Shown: positions 12 through 16,374 of the stretch, piece by piece
Layout: each line of letters begins with the position of its first letter
Position numbering within the stretch: position 1 is the first letter of the stretch
Origin: a virus
Lineage: Duplodnaviria; Heunggongvirae; Uroviricota; Caudoviricetes
Virus record (IMG/VR): IMGVR_UViG_3300045988_128742
Direction: 5' to 3' (one strand)
DNA length: 33,825 nucleotides
Translations under genes and position numbers: made by a program
The notes under the pieces: model-generated
Database searches by the model: none
What the model saw: the letters and a program-made list of their open reading frames with translations, nothing else
What the model was told of the DNA's origin: nothing

Positions 12-87
12 GCCGATATAGCTCAGTTGGTAGAGCAGCGCATTCGTAATGCGAAGGTCGTAGGTTCGACTCCTATTATCGGCACCA
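12..87 (+). tRNA. thrW: tRNA-Thr, anticodon CGT (reads ACG)
   Basis: 76-nt cloverleaf read by eye: acceptor stem GCCGATA/TATCGGC, D-arm GCTCAGTTGGTAGAGC, anticodon stem GCGCA/TGCGA with loop TTCGTAA, T-arm GGTTCGACTCC, discriminator A and encoded CCA. Confidence 0.9.
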
Positions 88-101
88 TTAAAATCAATAA
101 G

Positions 102-1265
102 TTACACATCATTAGTACCTTCCTTATTTTTTGACTGGGACAAATTTGGGACCGATGGGTTCAGGATCGAGTCTATTTGCCGTGCGTGTTCGGTAAGGTG
201 ATTAGGTGCAAGGTGAGCATATCGACGAACCATTTCGATAGACTCCCAGCCTCCCATTTCCTGTAACACTGACAACGGGACTCCGGCTTGAACCAGCCAA
301 CTTGCCCAGGTGTGTCTCAAGTCGTGAAATCTGAAATCATCAATACCTGCTCGTCTCAGCGCCGCTTTCCAGGCTGTGTTTGCGTCATACCGCATCTTCC
401 TGACCGTTGGCGCTTTCGTTCCGTCTGGTTTGGTACAGCTTTCCTTGTACACAAATACCCAACGGTGATGATTCCCGATTTGTTTTTTCAATACGCGACA
501 TGCAGTATCATTCAGCGCAACGCCAATTGCGCGGTTTGATTTACTCTCTTCCGGGTTTATCCATGCCACCCGGCGCTGCATATCTATTTGTTGCCATTCA
601 AGGTTGATGATGTTCGAGCGTCTTAAGCCTGTTGCCAGTGCAAATTCAACAACAGACTTTAATGGCTCCGGACATTCATCAATCAGCCTTTGTGCTTCAT
701 GGGGCTCCAGCCAGCGGATCCGTTTATTCTTTGGTTGAGGCACTTTAATAATTGGTGCCTTATCCAGCATTTTCCATTCACGCTCTGCGGCTCTTAGTAG
801 GGCCTTTATAAATGAAAGATGCGTAGCCTTCGTTGCAACGGACGCTGGTTTTGGCGTGTATTCTGGAACAGGTTTCCCTTTTTTTCTGCATGCTTCTGCC
901 CTGAGTTTCCAGTTTTCCTCATGACGCCGGTTCGTCATTTTCTGCATTGCTGAATAAATTTTTGATTCAGTAATGTCTCTTAGTTGCATTCCTGCGAAAT
1001 GTTGAAGCCAGAATCCGATCCGGCTTTTGTCATCGTCCAGTGATTTTTTATGTGCTTTCTCTTCAAGCCACCTGACACACGCTTCCTCGAACGTTATATC
1101 AGGTATTTCACCAAGTTTGCTGACCCGCCATGCTTCAGCCTTTAGCTTGTCATGGAGTTCTGTCGCCTGCCTTTTGTCCTTTGTTCCAAGAGACTGTTTA
1201 AATCTTTTACCGTTCGGCAATGTGAAACTGGCGTACCATATTTCACCTCTGCGGAAGAGTGACAT
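102..1265 (-). CDS. int: Tyrosine site-specific integrase, P22-type
   Basis: 387-aa ORF ending 15 bp from the tRNA 3' end. C-terminal catalytic motifs HDLRHTWAS and VRRYAHL; N-terminus [14 protein letters not shown] matches the P22 Int family as I recall it. ATG at 1265 with GAGGAAAG Shine-Dalgarno (SD) upstream. Confidence 0.95.
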
Positions 1266-6680: not shown

Positions 6681-7169
6681 ATGAGTCTTTTGAATGAAGT
6701 TCAGAAATTCATTGAAGCCCATCCGGGGTGTACTTCCGGAGACATTGCGGATGCTTTTGCAGGTTACTCACGGCAGCGCGTTCTGCAGTCAGCAAGCAAG
6801 TTACGTCAGAGTGGGCGTGTGGCTCACCGTTGTGAAGGAGATACACGCAGACATTTCTCGCGCCTGACTGAGAGAGCGCAGGAGCCGGAACCACAACCAG
6901 TTCGTGAAACCAGACCTGTGCGCAAGTTCTATGTCGGCACTAACGACCCCCGGGTGATTTTGTGCCTGACCCGCCAGGCTGAAGAACTGGAGTCGAGGGG
7001 CTTATACCGTCGTGCTGCAACGGTGTGGATGGCGGCATTCCGTGAAAGCCACTCCCAGCCAGAACGAAACAATTTTCTGGCGCGTCGTGAACGGTGTTTA
7101 CGGAAAAGCAGTAAGCGGGCTGCATCAGGTGAAGAGTGGTATCTCTCAGGGAATTACGTGGGGGCTTAA
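6681..7169 (+). CDS. Putative regulator with PerC-like C-terminal motif
   Basis: Track ORF starts at GTG 6675; ATG at 6681 preferred. C-terminal segment LESRGLYRRAATVWMAAF...ERNNFLARRERCL resembles the PerC/Pch family as recalled; N-terminal half looks winged-helix-like. Confidence 0.45.
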   Translation: MSLLNEVQKFIEAHPGCTSGDIADAFAGYSRQRVLQSASKLRQSGRVAHRCEGDTRRHFSRLTERAQEPEPQPVRETRPVRKFYVGTNDPRVILCLTRQAEELESRGLYRRAATVWMAAFRESHSQPERNNFLARRERCLRKSSKRAASGEEWYLSGNYVGA

Positions 7170-7822
7170 TGAGTAATAAATATTGCCAGGCGCTGGCGGA
7201 ACTGCGGAACAAACCAGCCCATGAACTGAAGGAAGTGGGCGATCAGTGGCGCACGCCGGACAACATTTTCTGGGGAATTAACACCCTGTTTGGCCCGTTT
7301 GTTCTGGATCTGTTCACTGACGGTGATAACGCCAAATGTGCTGCGTATTACACGGCGGAAGACAACGCGCTGGCGCATGACTGGTCAGAACGCCTTGCGG
7401 AGCTTAAAGGTGCTGCCTTTGGTAATCCCCCATACAGCCGCGCCAGTCAGCATGAGGGGCAATACATCACCGGCATGCGTTACATCATGAAGCATGCCAG
7501 TGCCATGCGTGATAAAGGCGGGCGCTATGTTTTCCTGATCAAAGCTGCCACCAGCGAAGTGTGGTGGCCGGAAGATGCAGATCATATTGCTTTTATTCGC
7601 GGGCGTATTGGTTTTGAACTGCCTGCCTGGTTTATCCCGAAGGATGAGAAGCAGGTGCCGACAGGCGCTTTCTTCGCTGGTGCTATTGCTGTTTTCGACA
7701 AGACCTGGAAGGGACCGGCAATCAGCTACATCGGGCGCGATGAACTTGAGGCATGTGGTGAGGCCTTTCTGGCGCAGGTTCGCCAGCAGGCAGAAAAACT
7801 GGTCAGGGAGATGGCGGCATGA
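7169..7822 (+). CDS. Phage N6-adenine DNA methyltransferase (Dam-like orphan MTase)
   Basis: Contains the NPPY catalytic motif (AAFGNPPYSR). ATG at 7169 overlaps the upstream stop as TAATG; the track ORF begins at an upstream GTG (7136). Confidence 0.8.
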   Translation: MSNKYCQALAELRNKPAHELKEVGDQWRTPDNIFWGINTLFGPFVLDLFTDGDNAKCAAYYTAEDNALAHDWSERLAELKGAAFGNPPYSRASQHEGQYITGMRYIMKHASAMRDKGGRYVFLIKAATSEVWWPEDADHIAFIRGRIGFELPAWFIPKDEKQVPTGAFFAGAIAVFDKTWKGPAISYIGRDELEACGEAFLAQVRQQAEKLVREMAA

Positions 7823-10357: not shown

Positions 10358-10374
10358 TTTTGTGGAGAAAGTTG

Positions 10375-10752
10375 ATGCGTGATATTCAAATGGTTCTGGA
10401 TCGTTGGGGAGCATGGGCGGCGAGTGATAGTTCAGGAGTAGACTATTCTCCTATAGCTGCTGGGTTTAAAGGGCTTCTTCCCTATACAAGCAAAACACGT
10501 CAGGCATGTTCAGATAGTGATGCATTAATTATTGAAGGTTGTCTTGCTCGTCTAAGGCAAAAAAGGCCGGACGAACATTCGCTTCTTGTTGCCCATTACC
10601 TATACGGTATCTCTAAAAGAAAGCTCGCCAAGGCTCGTAAAAAGGATGAGAAACTAATACGCATTGAGATACAGATGGCTGAGGGGTTTATTGATGGCTG
10701 CCTATCGATGCTGGAAATTAGTCTAGAGATGGACCCCGAAATTAAAGATTGA
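10375..10752 (+). CDS. Q: Late-gene antiterminator Q (phage 21-type, Phage_antitermQ family)
   Basis: N-terminus MRDIQMVLDRWGAWAA and C-terminal AEGFIDGCL motif match the Q21-type antiterminator family as recalled. ATG at 10375 with GGAGA SD; the track ORF starts at an upstream TTG. Confidence 0.8.
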   Translation: MRDIQMVLDRWGAWAASDSSGVDYSPIAAGFKGLLPYTSKTRQACSDSDALIIEGCLARLRQKRPDEHSLLVAHYLYGISKRKLAKARKKDEKLIRIEIQMAEGFIDGCLSMLEISLEMDPEIKD

Positions 10753-10759
10753 TTATTGA

Positions 10760-10783
10760 AGCCCGATTACTCGGGCTTTTGTT
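10760..10783 (+). terminator. Intrinsic terminator just downstream of Q
   Basis: Stem AGCCCG / CGGGCT with 6-nt loop followed by TTTGTT on the plus strand; the opposite-strand gene's stop codon lies in the loop. Confidence 0.6.
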
Positions 10784-11436
10784 CCACATCTCGAACATAG
10801 AGAATTACTGCTGACTTAATGTCACCATCGACGTGTTTTGCGTTAATGCTCAAATGTACAGGCTTTCTTTCCCACTCAGCTCGCTGCAATGCTTCTTTGT
10901 TTCCGGATTCATCAAGGAAAACATCCTGAACTACGCAGGTTAGACGTTGGTCGGTATCTACGCGTCGGACCTTAACTTTGAAACTCTCTGGGTCAGTATT
11001 ATTGACTTCTTCAATTCGGTAAATACCATCAATCCTCATTTCTGATGAACGTCTACGAGCATTCGTAACCAACTCTTTCGCCATTTCAGAATCAATAGTA
11101 ACGCCATCAATTTGAGCGTTATCTGAACGCACAAAGGATTTGACCATTTGGGTTTTAGCGTCATACGACATACGGTCCATGTTATCGAGAAGTGGTTTTT
11201 CCGCAATCATTTCTGAAATAACCCGCAGGCGTTTAGTTTCTTGCTCGCTCATGATCTGCATAGTCCGGAGATGTTCTTTCTCTCCATCCTTAGCAATTTC
11301 TGCAAGGCGAATATCTTTACGGTTGTCCAAGAACCGTTTAAATACTGTTACTCCGCCCCAGATGACTGCTGCGCCGAGAACAGTAAACATGATCTCAGTT
11401 GCGTTCATTTTACCAACAAGTTCCTGTGTGAGTTTG

Positions 11437-11445
11437 GTTAAAAAG
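11437..11445. repeat. Target-site duplication (left copy), GTTAAAAAG
   Basis: 9-bp direct repeat identical to 12497-12505, immediately flanking the IS inverted repeats. Confidence 0.85.
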
Positions 11446-12496
11446 GGCGTTGTTGCTCAAATCAGGGAACTATCCCGCAGTTTGGTGATCTGATCTCTTA
11501 GGTTCACCACCGGGAGCGCCAGATGGGCAAGTCCAAGCACAAGATCAGCAACTGGAAACAGTACAACCAAGCCTTGGTGCAACGTGGTTCGTTGACCGTC
11601 TGGATGGATGAGCAAGCCATCCAGCAGTGGCATTGCCAGACCCATCATGGCCGCCGAGGGCGAGGCTTCCATTACAGCGACTCCGCCATTGAAACCGCGC
11701 TGATGCTCAAGGCGGTATTCAAGCTACCGCTGCGTGCCTTGGAAGGCTTCATCAACTCGCTGTTCCAGCTGATGAATGTGCCCTTACAGTCGCCGGACTA
11801 CAGCTGTATCAGCAAGCGCGCCAAGACGGTCGAAATCAAGTACCGCCTACCGAGCCATGGCCCAGTAGCTCACCTGGTCATCGATGCCACCGGACTCAAG
11901 GTCTATGGCGAGGGCGAATGGAAAATTCGCAAGCACGGCAAGGAGAAACGCCGCGTCTGGCGCAAGCTTCACCTGGCCGTAGATGCGGCGACCCATGCCA
12001 TCGTCGCAGCCGAAGTCAGCCTGGAAACGGTGGGCGATAACGAGGTGCTGCCCACGCTGCTCAACCCCTTGCGCCGCAAGATAGAACAAGTCAGCGCCGA
12101 TGGTGCCTATGACACCAAAGCCTGTTATGCCCTACTACAAAAGAAGGGCGCCAAGGCCACCATACCGCCGAGAAAAAATGCGGCATTCTGGAAGACAGGC
12201 CATCCACGCAACGAGGCGGTTGCCGCGCTCAAGGCAGGAGAGCTGGAGCAATGGAAAAAGGACTCTGGCTATCATCAGCGCTCGATAGCTGAGACCGCCA
12301 TGTATCGCTTCAAGCAGCTCATCGGTCCGAAACTGAGTCTGCGGAGCTACAACGCCCAGGTGGGTGAGATCCTGGCTGGGGTAAAAGTCATGAACAAGGT
12401 CATAGGGCTTGGTATGCCCATTCGGCAGGCCGTCAACTAAGCCCGCCCGGCGGGTTGGGGAGCGAGTATCCGACTTTGGATTTGATCAACAAGGCC
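11446..12496 (+). mobile_element. IS903-group (IS5 family) insertion sequence, 1051 bp
   Basis: 18-bp terminal inverted repeats GGCGTTGTTGCTCAAATC (11446-11463) and GGCCTTGTTGATCAAATC (reverse complement of 12479-12496) flank one transposase gene, with a perfect 9-bp target duplication. Confidence 0.9.
11523..12440 (+). CDS. IS903-family transposase
   Basis: 305 aa; N-terminus MGKSKHKISNWKQYNQALVQRGSLT and core GEGEWK.RKHGKE.RR.WRKLHLAVD match IS903/IS102 transposase from memory. Confidence 0.9.
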   Translation: MGKSKHKISNWKQYNQALVQRGSLTVWMDEQAIQQWHCQTHHGRRGRGFHYSDSAIETALMLKAVFKLPLRALEGFINSLFQLMNVPLQSPDYSCISKRAKTVEIKYRLPSHGPVAHLVIDATGLKVYGEGEWKIRKHGKEKRRVWRKLHLAVDAATHAIVAAEVSLETVGDNEVLPTLLNPLRRKIEQVSADGAYDTKACYALLQKKGAKATIPPRKNAAFWKTGHPRNEAVAALKAGELEQWKKDSGYHQRSIAETAMYRFKQLIGPKLSLRSYNAQVGEILAGVKVMNKVIGLGMPIRQAVN

Positions 12497-12505
12497 GTTA
12501 AAAAG
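12497..12505. repeat. Target-site duplication (right copy), GTTAAAAAG
   Basis: Identical to 11437-11445. Confidence 0.85.
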
Positions 12506-13020
12506 CCATCAATGTTGATTTCTACTATTGAAGAACCCTGTTCTACCGTAACTTCTATTTCTAGGGCATCAAGTTCTTCTTTGGTCAGTTTGCGGACGTC
12601 AGGGACACCGTACTTGGCAAGGGCATATGATTTGTTGATTTGAGCTTGCATTTCAACAAATCCCTTCATAACTGAAGGTGTTAGCGATCTGTTGAATTTT
12701 TCACCGGTTAATCTGATGGTAAGGTTTGGCCATCCGTTGAAACTTAAACTGTCAGGTAAACCATAACCATCAAGATAGCTTTCAAGCAAATCGAAGGCTT
12801 GCTGCTCAGATTCAATGTCTACATGAATCTCATCAAACTTATCCAAAAATATGTCCTCATTCTAAGCCAACTGTCACCGTGAGGTTTGGCAACGCCTGCT
12901 TTATTTTTCGTTTTAAGCTGTGTGGCAAAAAAATAATGGAAAAACAGATAAAAATCACTAACGCGGTCCGCATTTTCTAGATTACTGTGTTAAGAGTGGT
13001 TACTTCGCCACACAACTTAA

Positions 13021-13044
13021 ACCCGCCGCTGAGCGGTTTTTTTG
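13021..13044 (+). terminator. Intrinsic terminator in the intergenic region upstream of the late genes
   Basis: GC stem (CCGC...GCGG) followed by seven T on the plus strand, directly after a 14-bp long-range inverted repeat (12913-12926 / 13007-13020). Confidence 0.5.
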
Positions 13045-13165
13045 TACCTGTAAACTTGGTGCAGCACAGTAAACACGCTGGTGGTCGTGAATACTGACTT
13101 TTTATCTTGCTGGCTTTTTAGACAAGAGTTATTGGTATGTCATGTTAACCAGAAGGGAAAAAGAC

Positions 13166-13369
13166 ATGCTAAAACAGCAAGATATGACAGAAACCGCCGC
13201 CGCAGTCCTTCATTTCTTACCTGCTGACAAGTGGGTAACGCCACGCATGATGACGAGAACTACCGGAGTAAGCGAAGCCCGGTGCCAGTTAATACTGACT
13301 CAGTTAGTTCTGGCGGGTCTGGCGAAGGATAACGGCGGGTACGGGAATAAATTCAGACGCTGCCAGTAA
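13166..13369 (+). CDS. Small putative winged-helix DNA-binding protein
   Basis: Track ORF 13142-13369; second ATG (13166) has a better SD (AAGGGA). HTH-like segment TPRMMTRTTGVSEARCQLILTQL. Confidence 0.4.
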   Translation: MLKQQDMTETAAAVLHFLPADKWVTPRMMTRTTGVSEARCQLILTQLVLAGLAKDNGGYGNKFRRCQ

Positions 13370-13519
13370 TGGCGGTTTCCTGCTGTGAAAATGGGCGGCT
13401 GGTGGGTGTTGGTAGCACCTGCCAGCCATTCGCTCATGCCTACTGGTCACAAGCGAACCACGGCCCACTGCTTTAGCGCAAAAGCAGAGTGAGCCTACCA
13501 GAGTTACGCTTACTGATCC

Positions 13520-14572
13520 ATGAAAAATACTGTAAAAATAAACAGTGTTGATTTAATCAACGCTGATTGCCTGCATTTTATTCAGTCCCTGCCTGATGAT
13601 TCCATTGACCTGATTGTTACCGATCCGCCTTACTTCAAGGTGAAACCTAACGGTTGGGACAATCAGTGGAAAGGGGACGAAGATTACCTTAAGTGGCTGG
13701 ACCACTGTCTGGCCCAGTTCTGGCGGGTGTTAAAACCTGCCGGAAGCCTTTACCTGTTCTGTGGACATCGCCTGGCATCTGATATTGAGATCATGATGCG
13801 TGAACGTTTCAACGTGCTTAACCATATCATCTGGGCGAAGCCGTCCGGACGTTGGAATGGGTGTAATAAAGAAAGTCTGCGCGCATATTTTCCTGCCACA
13901 GAGCGCGTTCTGTTTGCTGAACATTACCAGGGGCCATATCGCGGCAAAAGTGACGGCTATGCGGCAAAAGAAAGGGAACTCAAACAGCACATAATGGCAC
14001 CGCTGATATCGTATTTCAGGGATGCTCGTGCCGAACTGGGTATAACGGCAAAACAAATTGCCGAAGCCACAGGTAAGAAAAATATGGTTTCCCACTGGTT
14101 TGGTGCCAGTCAGTGGCAGTTGCCGAATGAGGCTGACTATCGGAAGTTACAGGCACTGTTTTCCCGTATAGCGGCAGAGAAGTTTCAGGAACAACAACTG
14201 GAACAACCACACCACCAGCTGGTGGCATCTTATGATTCACTGAATCGCAAATATTCTGAATTGCTGGATGAGTTTAAATCTCTCCGGCGCTATTTCTCCG
14301 TATCAGTCTCCGTGCCTTATACCGATGTCTGGACGCATAAACCCGTTCAGTTCTACCCGGGTAAACATCCGTGCGAGAAACCGGCGGATATGCTCCGGCA
14401 AATAATCAATGCCAGTAGTCGACCTGGTGATCTGGTTGCTGATTTCTTTATGGGATCCGGTTCCACAATAAAAGCAGCAATGGCGCTGGGGCGTCGGGCG
14501 TTAGGTGTTGAACTTGAGTCAGAGCGGTTTAATCAGACGGTGAAAGAGGTAAGTGAACTGGTGGGGAAATAA
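13520..14572 (+). CDS. Beta-class DNA methyltransferase (N6-adenine or N4-cytosine), orphan
   Basis: 350 aa; catalytic DPPY motif near the N-terminus (LIVTDPPYF) and AdoMet-binding FxGxG motif near the C-terminus (DFFMGSGST), i.e. beta-class motif order. No restriction endonuclease candidate adjacent. Confidence 0.8.
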   Translation: MKNTVKINSVDLINADCLHFIQSLPDDSIDLIVTDPPYFKVKPNGWDNQWKGDEDYLKWLDHCLAQFWRVLKPAGSLYLFCGHRLASDIEIMMRERFNVLNHIIWAKPSGRWNGCNKESLRAYFPATERVLFAEHYQGPYRGKSDGYAAKERELKQHIMAPLISYFRDARAELGITAKQIAEATGKKNMVSHWFGASQWQLPNEADYRKLQALFSRIAAEKFQEQQLEQPHHQLVASYDSLNRKYSELLDEFKSLRRYFSVSVSVPYTDVWTHKPVQFYPGKHPCEKPADMLRQIINASSRPGDLVADFFMGSGSTIKAAMALGRRALGVELESERFNQTVKEVSELVGK

Positions 14573-14648
14573 TTCTGGTGGCCACGTTGCGTGGCCTTTT
14601 TATTTCCAACACAGCACCCGCAAATATCGCGAGGTGAGAGATGACGAA

Positions 14649-14984
14649 ATGCCTCATAACCCAAATACCTGGCCGGACTGGCTGGAGTTGTTTCAGAGCT
14701 GGTGGCGTGGAGACACACCGCTGGGTGCAGTGATTATGTCGATCGTTATGGCTGGTTTGCGCATCGCCTATTTTGGCGGTGGTGGTGGCTGGAAGCGAAA
14801 AACGCTCGAGATTTTGCTATGTGGCGCTCTGACGCTGACCTTTGCATCCGCTCTTGAGTATGTCGGATGGCCTAAATCGCTTTCTGTTGCCATTGGTGGT
14901 GGCGTGGGGCTGATCGGTGTCGATGCTATTCGTGGGGCTGCAATGCGAGTAATCGGTAACAAATTTGGTAGCTCGAAGGAGTAA
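14649..14984 (+). CDS. Holin, lambda S-like class I
   Basis: Three hydrophobic segments and a charged C-terminus; pattern resembles lambda S. The start is uncertain: an in-frame GTG at 14553 with AGAGG SD is an alternative. Confidence 0.7.
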   Translation: MPHNPNTWPDWLELFQSWWRGDTPLGAVIMSIVMAGLRIAYFGGGGGWKRKTLEILLCGALTLTFASALEYVGWPKSLSVAIGGGVGLIGVDAIRGAAMRVIGNKFGSSKE

Positions 14985-16023: not shown

Positions 16024-16374
16024 ATGCCCCCTCGAACTCCAAAAGCCTGCCGCGTTCGCGGCTGCCGTAATACCACGACAGACCCGTCAGGCTACTGCGA
16101 AAGCCACAAAAGCGAAGGCTGGAAGCAATACAAGTCAGGACAATCCCGTCATCAGCGCGGTTATGGTTCTAAGTGGGATGTTATCCGTGTGCGTGTGCTG
16201 CAACGTGACAAAGGCCTGTGTCAGTTATGTCTGCGTGCTGGTGTGGCGCGTGAAGCGAAAACCGTTGACCACATCATCCCTAAAGCACATGGCGGCACTG
16301 ATGCCGACAGTAATCTGCAGAGTCTGTGCTGGCCGTGTCATAAGGCGAAGACGGCCCGTGAACGGCTTAAGTGA
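16024..16374 (+). CDS. HNH endonuclease (packaging-associated)
   Basis: 116 aa; Cys-rich N-terminus and HNH core (VDHIIPKAHGGTDADSNLQSLCWPCH); sits directly upstream of the terminase small subunit as in HK97-like phages. Confidence 0.8.
   Translation: MPPRTPKACRVRGCRNTTTDPSGYCESHKSEGWKQYKSGQSRHQRGYGSKWDVIRVRVLQRDKGLCQLCLRAGVAREAKTVDHIIPKAHGGTDADSNLQSLCWPCHKAKTARERLK

Follow-up and report, generated by a model that had tools for sequence, protein, structure and literature searches.

The 33,825-nucleotide (nt) Caudoviricetes sequence IMGVR_UViG_3300045988_128742 encodes, at positions 13166–14572, a DNA methyltransferase with a small open reading frame (ORF) upstream and no restriction endonuclease at its side, which raises the question of what such an orphan enzyme may do for the phage and how its expression is controlled. 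We analyzed this locus in the context of the whole 33,825-nt stretch, here called the window, which is a complete-looking SfV-type Escherichia coli prophage. The explanation that we favor, and consider probable, is that the gene is an orphan methyltransferase of the M.EcoGII family carried by an SfV-like prophage, that its expression would be late and Q-dependent and silent in the lysogen, that it would protect progeny DNA, and that its level would be tuned further by the RNA that precedes it.

The ORFs at 13166–13369 and 13520–14572 are a real gene pair and not a chance ORF. The methyltransferase gene is already known: it is a widespread, database-annotated prophage copy of the M.EcoGII family in its usual late-operon cargo slot. 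The sole possibly new part of the locus is the leader of the methyltransferase, a conserved folded RNA that is found in no RNA family library.

An orphan adenine methyltransferase of the M.EcoGII family

The gene at 13520–14572 (plus strand) encodes a 350-amino-acid (aa) β-class adenine methyltransferase, residues 29–341 of which match the Pfam family PF01555 (N6_N4_Mtase) with an E-value of 1.3e-42 and 146.6 bits (cut-off 26.7). The catalytic motifs DPPY (residues 35–38, nt 13622–13633) and FxGxG, here F-M-G-S-G (residues 310–314, nt 14447–14461), are intact and arranged in the β-class order, with motif IV N-terminal to motif I and the recognition domain in between. The latter is of the helix-turn-helix (HTH) type and is placed by homology at about nt 13997–14230 on the plus strand. 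The initial annotation of this locus had described an orphan β-class enzyme of 350 aa with DPPY ahead of FxGxG, and careful alignment bears this out, since DPPY and FMGSG are invariant among the eight relatives compared (the window protein aligned with seven others, at identities down to 53%). Its statement that no endonuclease partner is present also agrees with our results: Pfam and PADLOC searches of the neighboring genes, including the intact form of a gene that is disrupted here by an insertion sequence (IS), found no restriction endonuclease. The neighbors are the winged-helix ORF, the holin gene and the IS-disrupted gene, which is without a recognizable domain, and the adjoining endonuclease gene that would mark a Type II restriction-modification system is absent. 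The enzyme is thus phage- or prophage-encoded and without a cognate endonuclease, like the members of the M.EcoGII clade.

M.EcoGII (and M.EcoGI) of E. coli O104:H4 C227-11 is a non-specific adenine DNA/RNA methyltransferase that modifies adenine in any DNA context and also acts on RNA (Murray et al. 2018, PMC5778455). Reconstructed ancestors of the family all methylated both DNA and RNA, with no RNA sequence motif for Anc291 or SUPREM, and in this family a charged linker connects the core to a recognition domain built as an HTH four-helix bundle (PMC11551740). Over 349 aligned positions, including the recognition domain and the charged linker, the window protein shares 81% identity with M.EcoGII, and it is 89% and 70% identical to Anc291 and SUPREM/Anc284, respectively, where the three reference sequences were machine-read from the supplement of PMC11551740 and the percentages therefore carry small errors. 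It is 99–100% identical to SfV orf48 and to the corresponding genes of cdtI, mEp460, Ayreon and vB_EcoM-720R4. The likeness to M.EcoGII extends to length (349 versus 350 aa), to the order DPPY–recognition domain–FxGxG, to the HTH domain and charged linker, and to the prophage location, whereas about 19% of the residues differ and the window gene is located ahead of the lysis cassette in an SfV-like myovirus. Phage 1720a-02, which carries a very similar enzyme (PMC5778455), has the same arrangement of small ORF, leader and methyltransferase as the window.

Because the window protein is bracketed by assayed non-specific enzymes, we infer that its most likely activity is N6-methylation of adenine, with sequence context mattering little or not at all. 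A search of solved structures by sequence returned core-domain matches only, all of them to site-specific enzymes; being confined to the core, these matches make no statement on specificity. The initial annotation had expected a defined methylation target and had taken the lack of a phage-specific motif in methylome data as grounds for rejection. For a predicted member of a clade that modifies adenine in any context, the first expectation would be misplaced, and the second would wrongly reject a true function. M.EcoGII is prophage-borne, is not expressed in the lysogen, and slows growth or is harmful when expressed (PMC5778455, PMC12707154); a literature search for natural expression or a phenotype of the family found nothing beyond the M.EcoGII papers.

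Position in the late transcription unit

As expected of a Q-dependent late operon, a Q gene lies upstream. It encodes a Q antiterminator of the short type (126–130 aa) at 10372–10752 on the plus strand, as judged by matches to PF06530 (Phage_antitermQ, E = 2.1e-52) and to phrog_79 ("anti-termination protein Q-like"), and it is named "antiterminator Q family protein" by RefSeq in a prophage with 100% identical surrounding DNA. Between Q and the methyltransferase unit there is a block of ~70 nt, CGCGGTCCGCA...TGTTAAGAGTGGTTACTTCGCCACACA, at 12950–13019 (plus strand), which is a candidate for the late promoter (pR′) with its Q-utilization site. The block is common to four elements with a PF06530-type Q (the prophage of E. 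coli DETEC-P61, cdtI, mEp460_4F5 and 1720a-02) and is missing in SfV and Ayreon, whose Q is of another type; most other loci retrieved carried too little upstream flank to be informative on this co-occurrence. In 1720a-02 the block begins immediately 3′ of the Q stop codon, and in the window and in cdtI minus-strand cargo genes lie between Q and the block. Based on these comparisons, we infer that the block contains the late promoter and the Q loading site.

Two intrinsic terminators on the plus strand flank the unit. The upstream one, t1 (13023–13044), is similar to tR′ and consists of a GC stem followed by a run of seven T (−6.3 kcal/mol). SfV and Ayreon carry a rho-independent terminator annotation at the homologous site, and homology between phages of different Q types starts exactly at t1. 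The downstream terminator, t2 (14580–14606), is situated between the methyltransferase stop codon and the holin start codon and has a 7-bp GC-rich stem followed by TTTTTATTT (−12.5 kcal/mol, z = −3.0); its position is annotated as a terminator in SfV, Ayreon and N15, and in N15 an equivalent pair flanks gene 52. Since the unit lies downstream of Q and between two intrinsic terminators, late, Q-modified transcription should be needed for its expression. The two terminators and the putative Q dependence are consistent with an enzyme that is silent in the lysogen.

The stretch between t1 and the small ORF (13045–13165, plus strand) is a conserved untranslated leader of that ORF, nearly invariant among E. 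coli phages and better conserved than the ORF that follows it. The core of this stretch, CTTGCTG...CAGAGTTAYNTGTRT, is retained in Providencia, Proteus, Hafnia and Plesiomonas, and an AAGG Shine-Dalgarno sequence is kept across genera. A search of 13045–13165 for a promoter or a conserved fold found nothing convincing, and a long-range stem CUUGCUG/CAGCAAG around the start codon of the small ORF was rejected as it is not kept in Hafnia, Providencia and Proteus.

The placement of the methyltransferase just upstream of the lysis cassette recurs in SfV, Ayreon, cdtI, mEp460, Hafnia yong2, N15, PY54, Serratia OS31, Eeyore, LLS and an Aeromonas phage, and so spans phages of Escherichia, Shigella, Hafnia, Serratia, Yersinia and Aeromonas; a Q antiterminator is annotated upstream in most of these methyltransferase-bearing phages. 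In the Stx phages P27 and 1720a-02, the methyltransferase is followed by the stx genes instead of the lysis cassette.

A structured RNA leader precedes the methyltransferase

The methyltransferase is preceded by a structured leader of ~135 nt at 13387–13519 (plus strand), which ends at the start codon with the 3′ pattern TGATC(C/T)ATG. In the predicted fold, P1 closes a three-way junction with the long hairpin P2 and with P3, followed by P4, P5 and the terminal TGATCCATG, and the minimum free energy has a z-score of −4.5 relative to shuffled sequence. The small ORF and the methyltransferase are 147–153 nt apart in Enterobacteriaceae and 134–143 nt in Providencia and Proteus. Compensatory changes in the P2 stem are visible in plain alignments: GGCTGGTGGGTG/CACCTGCCAGCC in E. 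coli, GACTGTAAAAGTG/CACCTTTACAGTC in Proteus, GCGGGACGAG/CTCATCCCGC in N15 and GCTGCAACCACG/CGTGGTCACAGC in PY54.

A covariance model of the leader (R1; 136 positions, 36 pairs), built from a hand-set structure, matched 74 of the 80 IMG/VR loci retrieved with the N15 methyltransferase, 41 of 53 loci in a second set (IMG/VR loci retrieved via the Aeromonas phage methyltransferase together with six reference phage loci), and all searched loci with a full-length winged-helix ORF. Each matching locus contains exactly one match, always on the plus strand (13387–13522 in the window), and the match ends at the methyltransferase ATG in all lineages checked with the exception of the Aeromonas phages. 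Across 85 distinct sequences, 83% of the cells are paired, compared with 71% after column shuffling and 32–42% when the partners are slid by 1–3 columns, and both partners vary in 32 of the 36 pairs; fitting of the alignment to R1 inflates the pairing counts, and many of the sequences are related. P5 is the weak element, with 63% of cells paired. The G-U pairs are frequent, which points to an RNA of the sense strand. RNAalifold, run on a plain MAFFT alignment, recovered 16 pairs only, which covered P1, some of P2 and fragments and for which the covariation term was small, a poor recovery that we attribute to misalignment of the hairpins in plain MAFFT alignments. A pseudoknot pairing the P3 loop (UCAC) with the 5′ side of P5 (GUGA) was considered and rejected, as it is not kept in the PY54, N15 and Aeromonas sequences.

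The leader has no good Shine-Dalgarno sequence; positions −14 to −1 are mostly paired in the predicted fold, with the A-rich loop of P5 and the AUG open. It is present in relatives down to ~50% methyltransferase identity, and the leaders of Eeyore and LLS are almost identical though these phages are without the winged-helix ORF. Searches against Rfam 15, riboswitches and prophage small RNAs (sRNAs) included, returned no leader match at E ≤ 1 in this region of the window and none at the leader position in eight diverse relatives, and no described RNA motif at this position was found in the literature.

Based on these observations, we tentatively propose, at somewhat less than even confidence, that the ~135-nt leader is an undescribed cis-regulatory RNA dedicated to methyltransferases of the M.EcoGII family, conserved with compensatory base changes from Escherichia to Aeromonas phages, which would determine how much or when a toxic enzyme hungry for S-adenosylmethionine (SAM) is translated, either through structure around the ribosome-binding region or as a sensor of a ligand or protein (SAM or S-adenosylhomocysteine, the enzyme, or the winged-helix protein), and that the winged-helix ORF is a later insertion between the late terminator and the leader. 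Translational dosing of the toxic enzyme is our leading guess for its function.

Three further observations concern the leader region. In the Aeromonas phage phiARM81ld (locus L005, 2234–2577), the leader ends at the ATG of a 71-aa ORF that resembles the zinc-finger protein Com of phage Mu and overlaps the methyltransferase start, and a hairpin CUCCGAG/CUCGGAG lies just 5′ of the methyltransferase ATG, an arrangement that resembles the com-mom translational switch. The Com-like ORF suggests post-transcriptional control elsewhere in the methyltransferase family. A decayed prophage of the Enterobacteriaceae bacterium MGYG-HGUT-00110 (locus L047, 2962–3284) retains an N-terminally truncated winged-helix ORF and the leader (97.9 bits); the methyltransferase is gone, and unrelated short ORFs precede the holin. 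Finally, a GATC (Dam) site lies 4–7 nt before the methyltransferase ATG (window 13512–13522), as TGATCCATG or TGATCTATG, and is kept in most lineages, N15 and PY54 excepted. Dam sites matter at the DNA level for Mu mom.

The upstream ORF encodes an optional, predicted winged-helix protein

The small ORF (13166–13369, plus strand) encodes a 67-aa winged-helix protein of the SfV orf47 family (phrog_331), as judged by AlphaFold2 modeling, Foldseek and conservation. The MLKQQDM start is common to all its homologues, and ATG 13166 is also the RefSeq start in a near-identical prophage. The AlphaFold2 model, computed with 20 homologues, has an average pLDDT (predicted local distance difference test score) of 87.1 and a predicted template modeling score of 0.75, and consists of helices 4–17, 26–33 and 37–49 and a β hairpin (53–55/63–65), i.e., a bare winged helix of the H1-H2-H3-wing topology. 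In Foldseek, the model matches TrmBL2, IclR N-terminal domains, Z-alpha and SelB winged helices with template modeling (TM) scores up to 0.8 (0.77–0.82 for IclR N-terminal domains and Z-alpha), as expected for this topology; against viral models, only generic winged-helix matches were found. The Pfam families TrmB, DprA_WH and MarR_2 score 12–14 bits against cut-offs of 25–27, i.e., below threshold for membership, and the same matches are seen in 12–17 of the 20 homologues. The 150 database homologues are without an assigned function, a few being named TrmB-family regulators by NCBI. Thus, the predicted model supports a winged-helix fold for the small ORF, not membership in a named family.

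When the small ORF alone was used as a query, with one genome per species, 32 loci were found, and all 29 full-length copies (from 29 species) have a methyltransferase 134–153 nt downstream. The reverse does not hold, as 85 of 239 related loci, including those of Eeyore, LLS, N15, PY54 and Serratia OS31, carry the methyltransferase without the small ORF. At least two alleles, ~50% identical, and recombinants of these occur within near-identical flanking DNA; the SfV allele (locus L001, 4144–4338), for example, is 51% identical inside flanks of 98% identity. The segment MLKQQDMTETA and the recognition helix RCQLILTQL are invariant in 21 aligned sequences, while helices 1 and 2 and the wing differ. 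In N15 and PY54 the methyltransferase leader follows immediately on the late terminator, which makes the small ORF look like a cassette inserted between terminator and leader. We conclude that the small ORF is an optional accessory of the methyltransferase cassette.

These results bear on two further claims of the initial annotation. Its prediction of a winged-helix fold agrees with the model, whereas its suggestion of a controller-type regulator does not fit: the fold is the wrong one, there is no endonuclease to control, and more than a third of the related loci (85 of 239) are without the ORF. The methyltransferase was also said to head the late operon; it does lie upstream of the holin gene in a putatively Q-dependent late unit, but the small ORF is the first gene of that unit and the methyltransferase the second. 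The terminators t1 and t2 and the structured leader are better candidates for expression control than the small ORF.

Comparison with known systems

The closest counterparts are SfV orf47/orf48 and their equivalents in mEp460, cdtI, Ayreon and vB_EcoM-720R4, in which the terminators, spacing and downstream holin match the window. SfV differs from the window in its Q type and in its 51%-identical small-ORF allele, the DNA being otherwise 98% identical, and the window differs from the SfV-group phages in an IS element ~0.5 kb upstream, in the neighboring gene.

Expression of Mu mom comes last in the late phase and requires post-transcriptional control, exerted by way of a structured region at the start of the gene. 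Mom makes an N6-carbamoylmethyl adenine modification and is not a β-class SAM methyltransferase. The window resembles Mu com-mom, whose DNA-modification gene is toxic, acts broadly and stays silent in the lysogen (PMC12707154), in carrying a gene for which the same is predicted here, and differs in that it has no Com-like gene, in that the upstream ORF encodes a winged helix, and in that the leader is a different and much larger structure. A Com-type zinc-finger gene overlapping the methyltransferase start is absent from the window and present in the Aeromonas phage phiARM81ld relatives.

The controller (C) proteins of restriction-modification systems are Xre-type, all-helical HTH dimers of about five helices that bind C-boxes and time endonuclease expression. 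The window shares with these systems a small protein of DNA-binding type encoded just upstream of a modification gene. Unlike a C protein, it has a predicted fold of three helices and a β-hairpin wing and no HTH_3 match in Pfam, there is no endonuclease gene for it to control (no search for C-boxes was made), and many relatives do without the ORF.

The moron slot of lambdoid phages downstream of pR′, which houses stx and anti-sRNAs (Tree et al. 2014, PMC4104026), is the same position between the Q promoter and the lysis genes, and in P27 and 1720a-02 the methyltransferase unit sits between Q and stx. We considered whether the leader could be one of the prophage anti-sRNAs and rejected this, since those are 51–60 nt long, Hfq-bound and 3′ of the cargo (PMC4104026), whereas the leader is a 5′ cis element of ~135 nt with another architecture.

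Prophage context and neighboring genes

The DNA at 12800–14700 is 97–99% identical to phages mEp460, cdtI, SfV, Ayreon and vB_EcoM-720R4, and 1708 of 5426 complete E. coli genomes contain similar DNA. The gene order of the window is tRNA and integrase, early region, Q, lysis genes, HNH, P27-type small terminase, large terminase, portal, head genes and further long ORFs. A tRNA-Thr gene (anticodon CGU; 12–87, plus strand) directly adjoins the integrase gene (102–1265, minus strand), which suggests that the tRNA gene is the attachment site of the prophage; SfV-type phages presumably insert at thrW, which matches this position.

Downstream of the methyltransferase module, the boundary is formed by the first gene of the lysis cassette, encoding a holin S of the lambda family (about 14649–14984, plus strand; PF05106, E = 5.9e-27; "phage holin, lambda family" in RefSeq at the equivalent position), followed by endolysin, Rz/Rz1, an HNH protein and the terminase subunits. 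The HNH endonuclease gene (16024–16374, plus strand; PF01844) gave only weak, generic HNH matches in PADLOC, and since it lies directly upstream of the P27-family small terminase gene, we read it as packaging-associated and not as a restriction enzyme. A second methyltransferase gene, of the Dam family, is located in the early region (7136–7822, plus strand; PF05869, E = 1.2e-45; TIGR01712, phage N-6-adenine-methyltransferase); the prophage therefore carries an early Dam-type and a late M.EcoGII-type enzyme.

The IS element belongs to the IS903 group of the IS5 family (11446–12496, 1051 bp), encodes a 305-aa DDE transposase and is bounded by 18-bp imperfect inverted repeats; the 9-bp duplication of its target, GTTAAAAAG, lies at 11437–11445 and 12497–12505. 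It splits a minus-strand gene of phrog_6191, to which no function is assigned, into halves at 10767–11408 and 12433–12846; the gene is whole (339 aa) in E. coli DETEC-P61, the flanking DNA of which is 100% identical. The insertion falls between Q and the putative late promoter and leaves both untouched.

Discussion

Taken together, the layout suggests the following mechanism. The methyltransferase would occupy a cargo slot just downstream of a Q-dependent late promoter, with terminators before and after the unit, so that Q-modified, terminator-resistant RNA polymerase would read through to the gene only in lytic growth. The toxic enzyme would thereby be off in the lysogen and made while progeny DNA is produced and packaged, and the dense methylation of progeny DNA would make it resistant, in the next host, to many restriction systems that are adenine-sensitive. 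The covarying leader probably adds a further level of tuning through the RNA. Protection of progeny DNA, which the initial annotation also had in mind, matches the proposal made by the authors of the M.EcoGII study (PMC5778455).

Several points weigh against this explanation. The anti-restriction role is a proposal from the literature and not a demonstrated phenotype, and an identity of 81% is no proof of the same specificity, the activity of the window allele being predicted from sequence; the overall fold predicted for M.PflMI, which among the site-specific relatives named in the literature is the nearest, is similar. On the side of transcription, a consensus sigma-70 scan found no promoter at the expected place upstream of t1, the assignment of the block at 12950–13019 rests on a comparison of few phages, and the t1 hairpin is weak (−6.3 kcal/mol, z = −1.2). 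The leader, for its part, may not act directly on methyltransferase translation, because in the Aeromonas phages it precedes the Com-like ORF.

Other explanations of the enzyme itself concern its specificity and its substrate. A site-specific orphan methyltransferase, similar to Dam or CcrM, with a defined motif and a role in regulating phage gene expression, replication or packaging, would be in line with the solved relatives found by sequence (RsrI, MboIIA, CcrM and PvuII, all site-specific), with a recognition domain that, as an HTH four-helix bundle, is of a kind able to read sequence (PMC11551740), and with the site specificity of M.PflMI, the nearest characterized outgroup (PMC11551740). 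However, identity to the solved enzymes is limited to the catalytic core, whereas identity to M.EcoGII and Anc291 is 81–89% over the whole length, recognition domain and charged linker included, and M.PflMI is without this linker (PMC11551740); the prophage, moreover, already has a separate Dam-family enzyme at 7136–7822. We regard site specificity as improbable. Even less probable, to our minds, is that the main natural substrate is RNA or host DNA, in the sense of host takeover or transcript modification, and not progeny phage DNA. M.EcoGII and the reconstructed ancestors do methylate RNA as well as DNA (PMC5778455, PMC11551740), and M.EcoGII expression harms the cell (PMC5778455), but its initial rates are roughly 100-fold higher on DNA than on RNA (supplementary Table S3 of PMC11551740), and a position just before the lysis and packaging genes fits DNA protection.

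The control of expression could likewise be explained in other ways. That the winged-helix protein is a dedicated transcriptional controller of the methyltransferase, delaying or limiting its expression as a C protein would, is suggested by the strict linkage of the two genes in 29 of 29 species, by the invariant recognition helix RCQLILTQL, by the naming of some homologues as TrmB family regulators by NCBI, and by a protein that is basic by residue count. Its predicted fold, however, is that of a winged helix, where C proteins have an Xre-type HTH, it has no endonuclease to control, its Pfam matches all lie below threshold, and the methyltransferase and leader occur without it in 85 of 239 loci, Eeyore and LLS among them; the linkage could also come from conserved recombination anchors in the flanks, as the 51%-identical SfV allele within 98%-identical DNA indicates. 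We therefore consider such a controller unlikely, though less so than the other alternatives discussed here. A little less likely again is that the leader is no functional RNA, its conservation reflecting recent horizontal spread, hitch-hiking with the methyltransferase or a site at the DNA level. Many of the leader loci are close relatives, the fitted alignment inflates the pairing counts, RNAalifold finds few pairs in the plain MAFFT alignment, and P5 is paired in 63% of cells only. Set against this, the compensatory changes in P2 are visible in unfitted alignments of E. coli, Proteus, N15 and PY54 sequences, the frequent G-U pairs are strand-specific, the spacer is held at 147–153 nt across Enterobacteriaceae despite drift of the loop sequences, sliding the partners cuts pairing to 32–42%, and the leader is kept to ~50% methyltransferase identity. 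On balance, a late, non-specific M.EcoGII-type enzyme that would protect progeny DNA, preceded by a folded leader, remains the explanation that we prefer.

As a gene, the methyltransferase adds nothing new, since the biochemistry of the family is published and its members are used as laboratory tools. For annotators and methylome analysts, the consequence is that no motif is to be expected from this gene, and that a "no motif" outcome is what a non-specific enzyme would give. The locus is of wider use for the question of how phages silence a harmful enzyme in lysogens and dose it during lytic growth, for which the layout offers several handles: the two terminators, the covarying leader RNA, the optional winged-helix ORF and, in one lineage, the Com-like ORF. 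Should the leader turn out to have a regulatory role, it would add a new RNA element of phages, linked to a family of enzymes in wide use.

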